The notes under the pieces: generated by a model
Told to the model about the DNA's origin: nothing
Database searches by the model: none
What the model saw: only the letters and a program-made list of their open reading frames with translations
Source: Candidatus Kaiserbacteria bacterium
GTDB taxonomy: Bacteria; Patescibacteriota; Minisyncoccia; Phycocordibacterales; UBA2100
Direction of reading: 5' to 3'
DNA length: 64,000 nucleotides
Assembly (NCBI GenBank): GCA_016432285.1
Contig: CP066682.1
Span: 439,072 to 503,071, forward strand
Program-made: the position numbers and the translations under genes
Part shown: positions 9,030 to 13,215 of the stretch, in pieces
Position numbering within the stretch: position 1 is the stretch's first letter
How the letters are laid out: each line of letters starts with the position of its first letter

Positions 9030-9230
9030 TTAGGCTTTCGAGACCTGAGTCGCGTTCGGTCCTTTCGGACTTTCTGCGACCTCAAAGGTCACCGTGTCGC
9101 CTTCGCGAAGCTCGTTGAACGAAACTCCGGCAAGCTCGTTGGCGTGGAAAAAGAGATCTTTCTCCTGGCCCTCTCGCTTGATGAACCCGAATCCCTTGTC
9201 GGTGAGACGGGCGATTGTTCCTGTTTGCAT
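9030..9230 (-). CDS. cspA: cold-shock protein (CspA family)
   Basis: GFGFI and FFHANEL RNA-binding motifs. 66 aa. Confidence 0.85.
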   Translation of the reverse strand: MQTGTIARLTDKGFGFIKREGQEKDLFFHANELAGVSFNELREGDTVTFEVAESPKGPNATQVSKA

Positions 9231-9358
9231 AACAGTTGGACGTTTTTGCTAAATCAAGACAGTTATGCTGAGAGTGGAGAGTCGATCCTTCAATCCCGGA
9301 TCAGCGCTGGTTGATGCAGGAAAGGTAGCACCTTTCCACCTCGCTGTCAATGCGCTCC

Positions 9359-10771
9359 TCAATGCATCGCCTGCGGCGCATGCTTCGGCTCGCGGAGCGC
9401 GAATGCGCCGAGGAGCGCCGCGAGCGCGGCGAAGATCGCACCAGCGAAGAAGGCTGCCTGGTAGCCGCTGTTGAGCGCAAGCGTGCCTGCACCCGCGCCG
9501 CCGGCCCCTATCGTGACGGCCGCGGCGATCGCGGCGAGGATCGCGAGGCCGAGGCTTCCGCCCATCATGAATGCGGTGTTGACGACGCCCGATGCGAGGC
9601 CTGTTTCTTGCTGCGGCACATCGCCCATCGCGGCGAGCAAGACGGGGTTAAAAGCCATGCCTGCGCCGAGCCCCAAAAGGAGCATGCTCGGGAAAACGTC
9701 GACCCAAAAGCTGCCGTCGATCGGCGCGCGCGCAAAAAGAAGAAGGCCTGCTGCGGCGAGCACGAGCCCCACGCCGATCGGCGCACGGATGCCGAATTTC
9801 ATTACGACCCACGCTGAAAGTCCGATCGAGAAGGCCGCCATGATGAGGTTGGCCGGGAGGAAGGCGAGGCCCACTTCCTGCGGGCCGTATTGCAGGATGA
9901 GCTGAAGGTAGAGTGCGGCAAGGAAGAACCACGCGAACATGGCGGCCGCCCAGAAGACGCCCACCACGCTCGAAATGGCGAGGTTGCGATTCTTGAAGAT
10001 GTCGAGCGGGACCAGCGGGTGCGAGACGCGCGATTCGATCCAGAGGAAGATGCCGAAGAGCACGATCGCGCCAAGGAGAAGGCCGAGAGTTTGGAAAGAT
10101 CCCCAGCCGACTTCGTTGCCGCCGATGATCGCGTAGATCGCGAGGAGCAGCGAGGCCGTCACGGTGACCGCACCCGAAAAGTCTAGCCGCTCTCCGTGCG
10201 AGACTCCCGGCATTTTCGGGAGGAGGTAAAGGCAGGCGATGAAGACGCCGATACCGATGGGGATGTTGATGAGGAAGTTGAGGTGCCAGTTGATCACCGT
10301 GAGGAGCCCGCCGAGAAGGACGCCAACCGATCCACCGCCCGCCATGATGAAGCCGAAGACGCCCATGGCCCGCGCGCGCTCGCGCGGGTCGGGAAAGATA
10401 TTGATAACGAGCGAGAAGGCGATCGCGCTCGCCATCGCGCCTCCGATCCCTTGGATTGTGCGCGCGATGATCAGCATCTCCTGCGTGGAGGCAAGTCCGC
10501 ACGCGAGGGAAGCGAGCGTAAAGACCGAAAGGCCGGTGAGGAAGAGCCGCCGCTGACCGTACAAGTCGCCGAGCCGGCCGCCAAGAAGGAGGAAGCCGCC
10601 GAAGGTGAGGAGGTAGGCGTTGACCACCCACACGAGCGAGGCGTCGCTAAAAAGAAGATCCGATTTGATCGAGGGGAGCGCGACATTCACGACCGACATG
10701 TCGAGCACGATCATCAGGTTTCCGATGCAGAGTGTAGCAAAAGCCCACCAGCGTGTGCTCGCGTCGATCAT
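9359..10771 (-). CDS. MFS transporter, DHA2 (EmrB/QacA-like, 14 TMS) drug:H+ antiporter family
   Basis: 470 aa, ~14 hydrophobic segments. MFS motif GGRLGDLYGQRRLF. Confidence 0.75.
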   Translation of the reverse strand: MIDASTRWWAFATLCIGNLMIVLDMSVVNVALPSIKSDLLFSDASLVWVVNAYLLTFGGFLLLGGRLGDLYGQRRLFLTGLSVFTLASLACGLASTQEMLIIARTIQGIGGAMASAIAFSLVINIFPDPRERARAMGVFGFIMAGGGSVGVLLGGLLTVINWHLNFLINIPIGIGVFIACLYLLPKMPGVSHGERLDFSGAVTVTASLLLAIYAIIGGNEVGWGSFQTLGLLLGAIVLFGIFLWIESRVSHPLVPLDIFKNRNLAISSVVGVFWAAAMFAWFFLAALYLQLILQYGPQEVGLAFLPANLIMAAFSIGLSAWVVMKFGIRAPIGVGLVLAAAGLLLFARAPIDGSFWVDVFPSMLLLGLGAGMAFNPVLLAAMGDVPQQETGLASGVVNTAFMMGGSLGLAILAAIAAAVTIGAGGAGAGTLALNSGYQAAFFAGAIFAALAALLGAFALREPKHAPQAMH

Positions 10772-10776
10772 ACAAT

Positions 10777-11178
10777 TTATGCGCGCGCGGGTTGCAAGAG
10801 GCTCACTCTGTTGCCCTCGCTGTCTTCGATCGAGATGTAGAGACCCACGCCCGGAATCTCGTCGGGCTCACCAGCAGTTCGCGCGCCGATCACCTTGCCG
10901 CCGGATTCCTCCACGCGCTTCATTGCCGCGCGGATGTCGTCGACGCTGATGACGACCGAAGGGTATTGATTTTCCTTCGTGCGTTCGAAAAAGCCGCCGT
11001 TGATCGCGCCCGGCGTCTTCACCATGTTGTTGGCGTCAGTCTCTGTGGTGTGGACGACCACATAACTTCCCATTTCGGGCCCGAGCTTGTCGGCGCTCCA
11101 TCCGAATGCTTTGGAGTAAAAATCTGCCATGCGGTCGCGATTCTCGTACGGCATCTCAAAGTGAACGACTGGATTCAT
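10777..11178 (-). CDS. VOC/glyoxalase-bleomycin resistance family protein
   Basis: 133 aa. HFEMPYENRDRMADFYSKAFGW and the paired betaalphabetabetabeta module pattern of the glyoxalase I fold. Confidence 0.6.
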   Translation of the reverse strand: MNPVVHFEMPYENRDRMADFYSKAFGWSADKLGPEMGSYVVVHTTETDANNMVKTPGAINGGFFERTKENQYPSVVISVDDIRAAMKRVEESGGKVIGARTAGEPDEIPGVGLYISIEDSEGNRVSLLQPARA

Positions 11179-11381
11179 AGAATAGATGAGTAGTGATTAA
11201 CGAACGTGCGGTACACACAAGCTAGTAACAGCTCACAATGTGGCCTATCATACCAAGAAATAATGAAGACGCGTACGGGATCGACATGAGTCAGCGGGAA
11301 CTGCGTGAACAGTATGTATTTTTGCTCGCGTTCGGCTATACTGCCGCGAGTCGTCAACGCAGAGCGCTGGCGATTCATATT

Positions 11382-11657
11382 CCGGGGTAACTCAATGGTA
11401 GAGTGGCTCCCTGTCGAGTAGGCAGCTTTTGATCGGAAGGTCAATCGAAAATTTCGGGATAACGGTGAACCCCTCGCCTCGGCAGGGCAACACCGTGGGA
11501 ACCCTAAGAGATAGGCCGTTATGCGGCAATCTCGCGGGGGCGCCGTAGAGACTAGATACCGAAGCACCGAGATCCGGTGATGATATAGTCCACGCCTTTA
11601 AGAAATTAGAGGATTCGTGTAAGGAGTAAGTTGTGGGTTCGAGTCCCACCCCCGGAG
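11382..11657 (+). tRNA. tRNA interrupted in the anticodon loop by a group I intron; most likely tRNA-Asn(GUU), alternatively tRNA-Thr(UGU)
   Basis: 5' exon 11382-11415: TCCGGGG acceptor, D-arm ACTC/AATGGTA/GAGT, anticodon stem GCTCC, loop CUGU. 3' exon 11620-11657: UAA + GGAGT stem + T-arm GTGGG-TTCGAGT-CCCAC + acceptor CCCCGGA + G73. U1-A72 and G73 match Asn. Exons total 72 nt. Confidence 0.7.
11416..11619 (+). ncRNA. group I self-splicing intron (~204 nt) inside the tRNA anticodon loop
   Basis: Conserved group I core elements R-like GTAGAGACTAGA and S-like GATGATATAGTCC. The 5' exon ends in U, which can pair as G-U with GCAG (the proposed internal guide sequence). The intron ends in G. Size is like Azoarcus-type tRNA introns. 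Confidence 0.65.
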
Positions 11658-11670
11658 CCTGAAGCAGTTG

Positions 11671-11696
11671 GACCCCGACGCGCGAGCGTTGGGGTC
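11671..11696 (+). terminator. hairpin GACCCCGACG-cgcgag-CGTTGGGGTC downstream of the tRNA (weak, no clear T-run)
   Basis: 10-bp stem with one mismatch. Confidence 0.3.
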
Positions 11697-11885
11697 TTAC
11701 TGATTCACCCCGGGGCGGGACTCGAAAGGCGGAGCGCCGAGCATCGGCGCGAGCCGGGGTCGAGAAACATTTTTTGAAAAAAATGTATTCGTGACCGAGT
11801 CCCACCCCGAGAGTGATTTTGCTCGAGCGGGTGGGGCAGATCATCCAACATTGACGGGCATAATACAGAGGTTCATACTTTCCTC

Positions 11886-12860
11886 ATGAACGACTTGGCG
11901 AAACTGAAGGAGGTACTTCCAGTTTTTGAACAGATAACTGTCGCCGACCTAAAAAGAACGGAGCTAGGCGTATTTAGTTTCGACGAAATTTTCGACACGA
12001 TTGGGAGCACATATGAGTTGCTCAAGAATCTTGCAAATCAAGAAGATGTTTTAAAGGAAGATTCGTACATTCCCTCACAATTAGTAAATAGCCTGAGAGA
12101 TAACGTCAACACATTCAACAATCTGGCCAACAAGGTGCGAGAGTTCGACGTAAAGGCCGGAGACCCAACACCGCGTCGTCAAAATCTCATCGACGAAATA
12201 AAGAGTTTCAAGGCGTCTGCGATAAGTCAGCTTCACCCTCTAGTCGCGTTAGTTCAGTTGCGTCAGCTGGACCCCGCAAAATACAGCGTAGGGTTGCAAA
12301 CTATGCAGGGCGAAGTGCAGAGCATACTGAAAAAGCTAAAGGAGAAGGATGAGGAGGCCTCCAAAACACTGCAAAAAATTAAAGACGTTTCTGCCTCGTC
12401 CGGTGCAGAAGCATACGCGCACGTCTTTTCGTCACAAGCAACTATTCACAAAAATACCGCAAAATGGTGGCTCTGGGCTGGCGTAGCATTTTTTGCTATT
12501 TTGGTTCTGTATCTTATCTACCTGCTGGCTAACGGTGTTCCAACATCGGAGGATTTAGTACATGCGATTCGAGATATCTCGCTCCGTGTCCTGTTCCTCA
12601 TTGCGATCTACTTCGCCCTTACGCAGAGCATTAAGAACTACAATGTGAACAAGCATCTACAAGTCGTGAATGAGCATCGACAAAACTCACTGAAAACATT
12701 TGAGGCGTTTCTAAATGCCGCTGCAACGGACGATGTGAAGTCCGCAGTACTCTTGCAAGCGACCAAATCAATATTTGATCCAGGCAAAACGGGATATCTG
12801 CAAAAAGAAGGCCAGGTTAGTTATTCGTTCAGTGTTGCTGATATCTTCAAAAAGAGTTAG
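11886..12860 (+). CDS. hypothetical 2-TM membrane protein in an AT-rich islet
   Basis: 324 aa. N-terminal ~190-aa helical soluble region. Two hydrophobic helices (WWLWAGVAFFAILVLYLIYLLA; LRVLFLIAIYFALTQSI). ~90-aa C-terminal tail. GC markedly lower than flanking DNA. Confidence 0.6.
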   Translation: MNDLAKLKEVLPVFEQITVADLKRTELGVFSFDEIFDTIGSTYELLKNLANQEDVLKEDSYIPSQLVNSLRDNVNTFNNLANKVREFDVKAGDPTPRRQNLIDEIKSFKASAISQLHPLVALVQLRQLDPAKYSVGLQTMQGEVQSILKKLKEKDEEASKTLQKIKDVSASSGAEAYAHVFSSQATIHKNTAKWWLWAGVAFFAILVLYLIYLLANGVPTSEDLVHAIRDISLRVLFLIAIYFALTQSIKNYNVNKHLQVVNEHRQNSLKTFEAFLNAAATDDVKSAVLLQATKSIFDPGKTGYLQKEGQVSYSFSVADIFKKS

Positions 12861-13065
12861 AGAGTTTCGCTGATTATCTGTTTTCAACGAAAGGGATTTG
12901 CGGACGCGGATGGGAGGGTGGACCAAGTACGCATGGATTCGGGGCCCCTCTCTTCCCGCCAAAAAATCCTCAATTCAAAAAATCTTTGGCTCGAACGCGG
13001 CCGCTGCGAAGGCGGCGGCGTGGTCTTCACGTTGCGCACACCGGGAGCGGATGTAGAGTGAGTGT

Positions 13066-13215
13066 ATGCAGGATCGAGAGCACGAAGAGTGGCTAGCCGA
13101 TGAGGCCCGAAAGAACGGCAAGAAACGCACACCGCCCGCGCGGCCTCCCACCGACGATGAGGGCGAAAAGGGCGGCCCGGAGCCGCTTGGATGGGATCCG
13201 GTGCTCGGCGTATGA
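13066..13215 (+). CDS. small basic/acidic hypothetical protein (49 aa)
   Basis: ATG...TGA ORF with its stop overlapping the ATG of the downstream gene (GTATGA). Confidence 0.25.
   Translation: MQDREHEEWLADEARKNGKKRTPPARPPTDDEGEKGGPEPLGWDPVLGV

Follow-up and report, generated by a model that had tools for sequence, protein, structure and literature searches.

What is a lone AT-rich gene for a protein with two transmembrane (TM) helices doing just downstream of an intron-containing tRNA gene in a genome of the Candidate Phyla Radiation (CPR), and how did it get there? We address this question for the gene at positions 11886 to 12860 of a 64,000-nucleotide stretch of “Candidatus Kaiserbacteria” DNA (assembly GCA_016432285.1, contig CP066682.1, positions 439,072 to 503,071 of the forward strand), which is referred to here as the window. 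The islet is real, acquired, and composed of a single gene, and its product belongs to a very large, uncharacterized family that travels as cargo of mobile elements, which makes it more ordinary than the orphan that a preliminary description, made from the sequence alone, had taken it for. In our estimate, the chances are about even that the gene is the surviving cargo of an integrating element targeting tRNA genes and that its product is a stand-alone membrane effector against phage that resembles AbiZ, an abortive infection (Abi) protein.

The open reading frame (ORF) is 100% identical to the NCBI protein HYS26_02595 from a “Ca. Kaiserbacteria” metagenome-assembled genome (MAG). Its GC content is 0.45, compared with a mean of 0.586 (standard deviation, 0.043) among the 52 long ORFs of the window (z = -3.1); this is the second lowest value and agrees with the description of the gene as markedly AT-richer than its neighbors. 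As a sign of transfer, however, the comparison with the flanks holds only in part. GC content at third codon positions (GC3) is also low (0.497 versus 0.665 in the window ORFs; z = -1.8), but the gene is AT-richer than its surroundings at all 12 loci compared (11 homologue loci and the window), and GC content at second codon positions (GC2) is 0.32 because of the amino acid composition. AT-richness is thus only partly a mark of transfer and is partly a trait of the family. At locus L001, from Ryanbacteria, the gene has a GC content of 0.451 versus 0.576 for the adjacent recombinase gene, whose GC content is host-like. The window gene is under purifying selection, since the proportion of nonsynonymous differences (pN) from the orthologues at loci L001, L005, and L026 is 0.12 to 0.18, far below a saturated proportion of synonymous differences (pS) of 0.82 to 0.87.

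The position downstream of an intron-containing tRNA also proved correct. The Rfam model for group I introns (Intron_gpI, RF00028) matches positions 11403 to 11612 over its full length with 34.6 bits (E = 2e-6), compared with a gathering score of 50, and the exons (11381 to ~11414 and ~11620 to 11657), when spliced in silico with the cuts after a U and after a G, fold into a cloverleaf recognized by ARAGORN, which misses this tRNA in the unspliced window. From its sequence, the tRNA would be either tRNA-Asn(GUU) or tRNA-Thr(UGU). The same intron-bearing tRNA is present in L001, with exons that are 89 to 91% identical and a diverged intron interior. The gene begins after a 228-bp spacer directly 3′ of the tRNA, and two segments of this spacer are copies of the T-arm/acceptor 3′ end of the tRNA (89% identical) that look like traces of earlier integrations.

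How such a gene might arrive at a tRNA is indicated by three related lineages, in which it is paired divergently with a gene for a large serine recombinase (LSR) containing Resolvase, Recombinase, and Zn_ribbon_recom domains. This arrangement is found at L001 to L004 (Ryanbacteria; 78% protein identity to the window), L005 to L007 (81%), and L026 (71%). The LSR and the 2-TM gene together form a unit of ~2.8 kb that is bracketed by inverted repeats in L001 and L005, where both arms are assembled. The arms are 150 to 170 bp long, and the left (recombinase-side) arm is made up of the final ~50 LSR codons. They are near-identical within one element and differ between elements outside a shared core of ~45 bp, which an alignment of the arms gives as CCCCTCCAAAAAATCC-N6-CCAAAAAATCTTCGGCTCGAAC. 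In the relatives, the 3′ end of the recombinase gene also contains the core sequence in inverted orientation, which there encodes ...PAKKSxIQKIFGSN.... The contigs of L026 and L029 are short, and only the shared core is visible in them; L029 encodes the closest relative of the window protein besides the identical HYS26_02595 (84%).

The ends of these arms place the unit at tRNA genes. At its outer end, the left arm of L001 stops inside the final few bases of the same intron-containing tRNA, and that of L005 stops at the end of tRNA-Gln(CTG); the recombinase ORFs of both loci read antisense into the tRNA and end in ...GFEP..., the complement of the T loop. In L029, unlike L001 and L005, it is the opposite (right) arm that adjoins a tRNA, ending ~100 nt from the core at or near the 3′ end of tRNA-Ala(GGC). 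Judging from these arm ends, the ~2.8-kb unit is found at three different tRNA 3′ ends and in either orientation. Further homologues lie ~1.1 kb from the 3′ end of a transfer-messenger RNA (tmRNA) gene (L008), ~0.7 kb from a tRNA-Pro/Ala cluster (L013), ~3 kb from an LSR gene (L011), and, in one case, within a small element that also carries genes for an LSR, a Rep protein, an XRE regulator, DUF2726, and PemK. Together with the prophage cargo and integron copies among distant homologues (see below), these LSR-associated positions at tRNA and tmRNA ends support the proposal that the gene was acquired at a tRNA landing site.

The window retains only part of such a unit. When the three LSRs were used as tblastn queries, the only matches in the window were the antisense strand of the tRNA and a 17-amino-acid piece in a repeat core 3′ of the gene, to which residues 444 to 460 of the L001 recombinase match at 94%. 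A weak recombinase match near 35 kb of the window was rejected, as it lies inside an unrelated ORF. The core is 49/52 identical to the left arm of L001 (blastn), a match beyond chance expectation, and is single copy: a second copy was found neither in the window nor in IMG/VR, and a repeat search of the window revealed no left arm. With pS in the neighboring gene saturated, this identity shows that the core is constrained as DNA or was so until recently; a recombinase acting in trans would explain it. The window tRNA adjoins the gene on the side where the relatives carry the recombinase, and the spacer between the two has no similarity to the recombinase regions of L001 or L005. One arm core and an adjacent tRNA are consistent with a relic element, and we read the islet as one that retained its cargo after losing the recombinase and one arm. 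The surrounding PBP-S30AE-fmt-def-MreB block is syntenic between the window and L001, with the block of tRNA and cargo inverted (11381 to 13190 in the window versus 5096 to 9236 in L001); no flanking repeats that could explain the inversion were found in this comparison.

The unit resembles known LSR elements, such as the phiC31- and Bxb1-type prophages and Tn4451 and Tn5397 with their recombinases TnpX and TndX, in the three-domain LSR and in the use of specific sites. It differs in that the window holds a relic only, with no recombinase gene. No LSR element is known that combines a single cargo gene in ~2.8 kb, near-identical inverted repeats of 150 to 170 bp that include the 3′ end of the recombinase gene, and outer repeat ends at or near tRNA 3′ ends in either orientation. 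The repeat arms may be either element termini or inversion sites; there is no sign of inversion switching of the LSR-cargo segment, which has one orientation relative to its flanks in all assembled contigs, but the opposite arm beside the tRNA in L029 would be compatible with it. The bolder proposal would be that the unit is a compact CPR mobile element of an undescribed kind, with ~160-bp terminal inverted repeats that include the recombinase 3′ end, precise insertion at tRNA 3′ ends in either orientation, and, as its sole cargo, a new, widespread family of single-protein antiphage membrane effectors related to DUF6161 and distantly to AbiZ; the window copy would be a relic that has been domesticated, with selection still acting on its 52-bp core. 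Taken as a whole, we regard this proposal as doubtful.

The tight divergent pairing with the LSR, inside one inverted-repeat-bounded unit and in three lineages, also suits a gene that serves the element itself, as an addiction toxin or by coupling recombination to the state of the membrane or cell, and that became nonfunctional or was repurposed once the recombinase was lost. We consider such a maintenance or mobility factor improbable. Elsewhere in the family, the gene occurs with tyrosine integrases, in integron cassettes, or with nothing of the kind; no antitoxin-like neighbor is conserved; and the window copy is intact without a recombinase.

A second tRNA site in the window drew our attention on similar grounds. 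An AT-rich single ORF (28797 to 29690, minus strand) with the lowest GC content in the window (0.44) encodes a PP2C_2 phosphatase domain (E = 1e-7); only 155 nt separate its end from the 3′ end of a tRNA-Val/Pro/Pro/Ala cluster (28222 to 28642). The tRNA-Pro(cgg)/Ala(cgc) pair of this cluster also occurs in L013, there with a 2-TM homologue 3′ of it, so that both tRNA sites in the window look like landing pads. On the other side of the intron-containing tRNA, a glyoxalase-like ORF contains a weak match to the c-di-GMP-II-GCG riboswitch (10851 to 10939, minus strand; 25.4 bits versus a gathering score of 47.9; E = 0.18), which is probably due to chance.

The protein is no orphan. Close homologues in Patescibacteria number 15 (HYS26_02595 and 14 others), and a profile search of 1.84 billion cluster representatives recovered 3945 representatives with E ≤ 1e-3, of which 1065 have E ≤ 1e-30; the majority of the representatives listed are 320 to 345 amino acids long and align over the full length. 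The patescibacterial clade aligns with a proteobacterial branch that includes Vibrio, Cellvibrio, Lysobacter, and Desulfuromonas over 319 columns, again the full length (hhalign, 99.94%; E = 9.3e-37). Other searches extended the family little. The profile of a 132-sequence alignment returned known relatives only from a word-indexed database, scans of genome and metagenome loci added few loci, sequenced phages and Escherichia coli genomes gave no match, and the plasmid search yielded a Vibrio tubiashii copy only. One family member is encoded by a siphovirus genome.

The anatomy of the protein was described correctly as a helical N-terminal domain followed by two closely spaced TM helices. Hydropathy places the hydrophobic segments at residues 192 to 221 and 227 to 249, and positive charge on both cytoplasmic flanks of the pair indicates an N-in/C-in topology with ~13 residues outside. 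An AlphaFold model built from the 132-sequence alignment is all-helical, with a predicted local distance difference test score (pLDDT) of 91.4; in it, an 87-residue helix leads from the N-terminal bundle into TM1, and TM2 returns and extends as a helix packed on the stalk. In structure comparisons, no solved structure resembled the window protein specifically. What had been called a short C-terminal tail is instead the best-conserved part of the protein. In this C module (residues 249 to 308), the frequency of the commonest residue averages 0.64, compared with ~0.33 elsewhere, and several His, Asn, and Arg positions vary little or not at all. Across the whole protein, W195 and H257 are invariant in 132/132 sequences. 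Natural forms of only 159 amino acids, consisting of the TM hairpin and the C module, are encoded by an Acidimicrobiaceae MAG (L019, 9833 to 10312) and a metagenome contig (L031, 1591 to 2070). These minimal forms show modularity and, together with the conservation of the C module, point to a conserved effector core joined to a variable N-terminal domain.

The coordinates of the gene, its protein regions, and the features around it are collected in the table. The scan that gave the promoter-like site found no more sites than expected by chance; if used, this site would start transcription at about the ATG and so give a leaderless mRNA. The hairpin after the stop codon is kept at the same position in all orthologues, as CTTCGCTG...CAGCGAAG, and is probably a terminator or stabilizer, although formal covariation support was not obtained from the orthologue alignment.

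Table. Features of the 2-TM gene and its surroundings in the window, and the inverted repeats of two related loci
Feature	Location	Strand or position	Basis or remark
tRNA gene containing a group I intron	11381-11657	+	Rfam match and in-silico splicing
Intron, ~205 nt, in the anticodon loop of the tRNA	~11415-11619	+	Rfam RF00028
Spacer between tRNA and gene	11658-11885		Site of the recombinase gene and left repeat arm in relatives
Putative scar resembling the tRNA 3′ end, inverted	11709-11726	Spacer	Repeat search
A/T palindrome, 20 nt, ACATTTTTTGAAAAAAATGT	11767-11786	~65 nt 5′ of the promoter-like site	Read from the sequence
Putative scar resembling the tRNA 3′ end, direct	11796-11813	Spacer	Repeat search
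Sigma-70-like promoter: TTGACG, 17-nt spacer, CATACT	11851-11856 (TTGACG), 11874-11879 (CATACT)	+	Promoter scan, 9/12 matches
Intact coding sequence, 324 amino acids	11886-12860	+	ORF list, homologue alignments
N-terminal helical bundle, residues 1-129	11886-12272	+	
Long stalk helix, residues 130-194	12273-12467	+	
TM hairpin, residues ~195-249	12468-12632	+	
Conserved cytoplasmic C module, residues 249-308, KNYNVNKHLQVVNEHRQNSLKTFEAF...LLQATKSIF..GKTGYL	12630-12809	+	
Hairpin directly after the stop codon, TTTCGCTG...CAACGAAA	12865-12892	+	Alignments
Apparent relic of the right inverted-repeat arm, core CCAAAAAATCC-N6-CAAAAAATCTTTGGCTCGAA	12945-12996	+	tblastn, blastn, arm alignment
Inverted repeats, L001	6486-6647 / 9068-9236		Bracket LSR and gene
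Inverted repeats, L005	8385-8535 / 11072-11231		Bracket LSR and gene

The window protein itself has no significant match in scans of Pfam, NCBIfam, PADLOC, and PHROGs, and its relationships emerge from the family. In Pfam, the proteobacterial branch borders on DUF6161 (PF19658), whose profile spans the pre-TM helix, the TM hairpin, and the C module. DUF6161 is recorded in the precomputed annotation of four members of the proteobacterial branch (P0172, P0211, P0240, and P0257) and matches 15/132 family members (best E = 1.4e-5). The matches scored individually have 17 to 24 bits, below the Pfam gathering threshold of 27; a Vibrio homologue, for example, scores 23.8 bits, with residues 149 to 315 on profile positions 49 to 215 of 216. 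The window protein does not match the profile. Taken with the alignment of the two clades, these matches show that the window family is homologous at the superfamily level to DUF6161-carrying proteins. One DUF6161 family has been flagged in silico by a language model as a defense candidate without known homology (bioRxiv 10.1101/2025.01.08.631966), but DUF6161 is uncharacterized, and the match thus names a superfamily without explaining a function.

The likeness to Abi proteins that had been proposed is weakly supported by part of the family. The PADLOC model for AbiZ (PDLC02354) matches 7/132 members over the TM hairpin and C module (best E = 1.1e-5), and some members are collinear with the last ~170 positions of the profile, as in P0042, in which residues 148 to 325 follow profile positions 227 to 396 of 398. 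The window protein, on the other hand, has no match to AbiZ, nor does any of the 20 members of the proteobacterial branch; all seven matches have E ≥ 1e-5, the profile is longer than the window protein (398 positions versus 324 amino acids), and the N-terminal parts are unmatched. A tblastn search with an AbiZ-matching member found no Lactococcus plasmid. What AbiZ, from the Lactococcus lactis plasmid pTR2030, shares with the window family is that it is a single gene carried by a mobile element and that it reportedly has two TM helices, near the C terminus and after a larger cytoplasmic helical part. The PADLOC LeoBC model also matches, on the stalk and TM region, in 9/132 members and in 6/20 of the proteobacterial branch; these matches may reflect either coiled-coil bias or a real resemblance to a dynamin paddle.

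The preliminary description had likened the architecture to the 2-TM effectors of SLATT type. We consider it highly improbable that the gene is such an effector, left behind by a nucleotide-signaling or retron-type system whose partner was lost. The SLATT and retron-Ec48 effectors do combine a TM hairpin with cytoplasmic helices, and membrane perturbation has been inferred for them; very weak NCBIfam matches to retron_Ec48_2TM (3/132 members), SLATT_1 (1/132), and SLATT_4 (1/132) occur within the family. These have E values of ~4e-4 to 8e-4 (3.6e-4 for SLATT_4 and 4.8e-4 for SLATT_1) in at most 3/132 members, however; the window protein has no SLATT match with E ≤ 10, and the 25 Pfam models that match the family most often include none for SLATT. 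Furthermore, in the window family, which has no significant profile match of this kind, the hairpin follows a 190-amino-acid domain and precedes a distinct conserved module with a motif of its own. No SMODS, LOG, TIR-type, cyclase, or reverse transcriptase partner is present in the window or at the ~20 homologue loci examined. Nor is any other partner gene conserved across these loci, which upholds the view of the gene as a stand-alone one. A holin can be set aside as well: holins are 70 to 150 amino acids long and lie beside an endolysin, whereas the window protein has 324 amino acids, no lysin neighbor is annotated at the loci examined, and its PHROGs holin match has an E value of 0.21.

In the wider family, the gene keeps company with integrases and defense genes. 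A tyrosine integrase adjoins the homologue in a terminase-bearing contig, and an integrase lies within 4 kb of the homologue in 5/5 prophage-like loci from IMG/VR, directly adjacent in L036. In a Vibrio-like prophage contig (L034, 7418 to 8856), the homologue is followed by a gene with a RexA domain and then by a small membrane ORF, which may be RexB-like; this cluster is integrase proximal and also holds an FRG-domain gene. The copy on the V. tubiashii plasmid pFP31 (L016) is part of a Vibrio cholerae repeat (VCR)/attC cassette array that is rich in defense genes and encodes Hhe, AbiH, a HEPN-associated protein, and a GIY-YIG nuclease. At positions 10001 to 11796 of L016, the homologue is followed by the nuclease gene with no attC repeat detected in between, so that the two may share one cassette; the nuclease would be a possible partner in the Vibrio branch only. 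Another homologue adjoins a Type ISP restriction-modification enzyme. Some loci show no telling neighbors, and some contexts are housekeeping ones.

An integrase-proximal position in a prophage is the classical place of superinfection exclusion genes, and the membrane-embedded product, made from the resident element, could act in this way, blocking DNA entry or the membrane step of an incoming phage or rival element while the cell survives, much like lactococcal Sie2009, P22 SieA, and T4 Imm. That the gene has been kept in the genome after the loss of the recombinase indicates that it is tolerated constitutively. However, profile scans gave no sequence link to any Sie family, and nearly all of the mass and all of the conserved residues of the protein are cytoplasmic; with only ~13 residues facing outward, this arrangement suits intracellular sensing better than a block of injection. 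We therefore view superinfection exclusion as unlikely.

The housekeeping contexts raise a different explanation, in which the protein serves the host, for example as a membrane-anchored factor for ribosome or envelope stress comparable to ElaB/YqjD or PspA, and hitchhikes on mobile elements, its AT-richness being compositional. One source does label a homologue “ElaB/YqjD/DUF883 family,” the gene is AT-rich everywhere with a GC2 of 0.32, and purifying selection persists in the window without a recombinase. The ElaB and PspA models give no significant match, however, and the distribution argues against a host function: the family is patchy across phyla and occupies variable loci with no fixed chromosomal position, one copy sits in an integron cassette, and integrase, restriction-modification, and Abi neighbors recur. 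A host stress protein is accordingly a distinctly unlikely reading.

The reading that we favor, at the even chance given above, is that the islet is what survives of a small integrating element that targeted the 3′ ends of tRNA genes. In the “Ca. Kaiserbacteria” genome, the LSR and its arm would have been lost, and the cargo gene, the hairpin, and the core of the other arm would remain. The product would span the inner membrane with its N and C termini both cytoplasmic; its variable N-terminal helical bundle is a putative sensor and its juxtamembrane C module a putative gate or oligomerization interface. In such a scheme, the protein would be made from the resident element, infection would be sensed on the cytoplasmic side via the variable N-terminal domain, and the TM hairpin and the His/Asn/Arg module would then breach or depolarize the membrane. 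Early lysis or a collapse of the membrane potential would follow, and the infection would be aborted or the incoming phage kept out. The analysis shows the anatomy, the size of the family, its mobile context, the selection on the gene, and the lack of a conserved partner, whereas we infer the antiphage role, its trigger, and the membrane mechanism from the analogy with AbiZ and other single-protein membrane effectors, from the anatomy, and from the genomic context. AbiZ is a single-gene Abi system that causes premature lysis together with a holin and has no known enzymatic domain or structural homologue (PMC13064643). Brigantia, a V. cholerae cassette system, also has a TM domain (bioRxiv 10.1101/2024.07.02.601686).

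CPR bacteria, or Patescibacteria, are generally reported to have few recognizable defense systems. If the favored reading is right, the window would contain a concrete candidate for a defense gene in the CPR, one that is moved among tRNA loci by a minimal recombinase unit. The LSR unit bounded by inverted repeats at tRNA ends may be a new type of small mobile element. Furthermore, the family has thousands of representatives across phyla and no assigned function, so that establishing the function of one homologue would annotate many.

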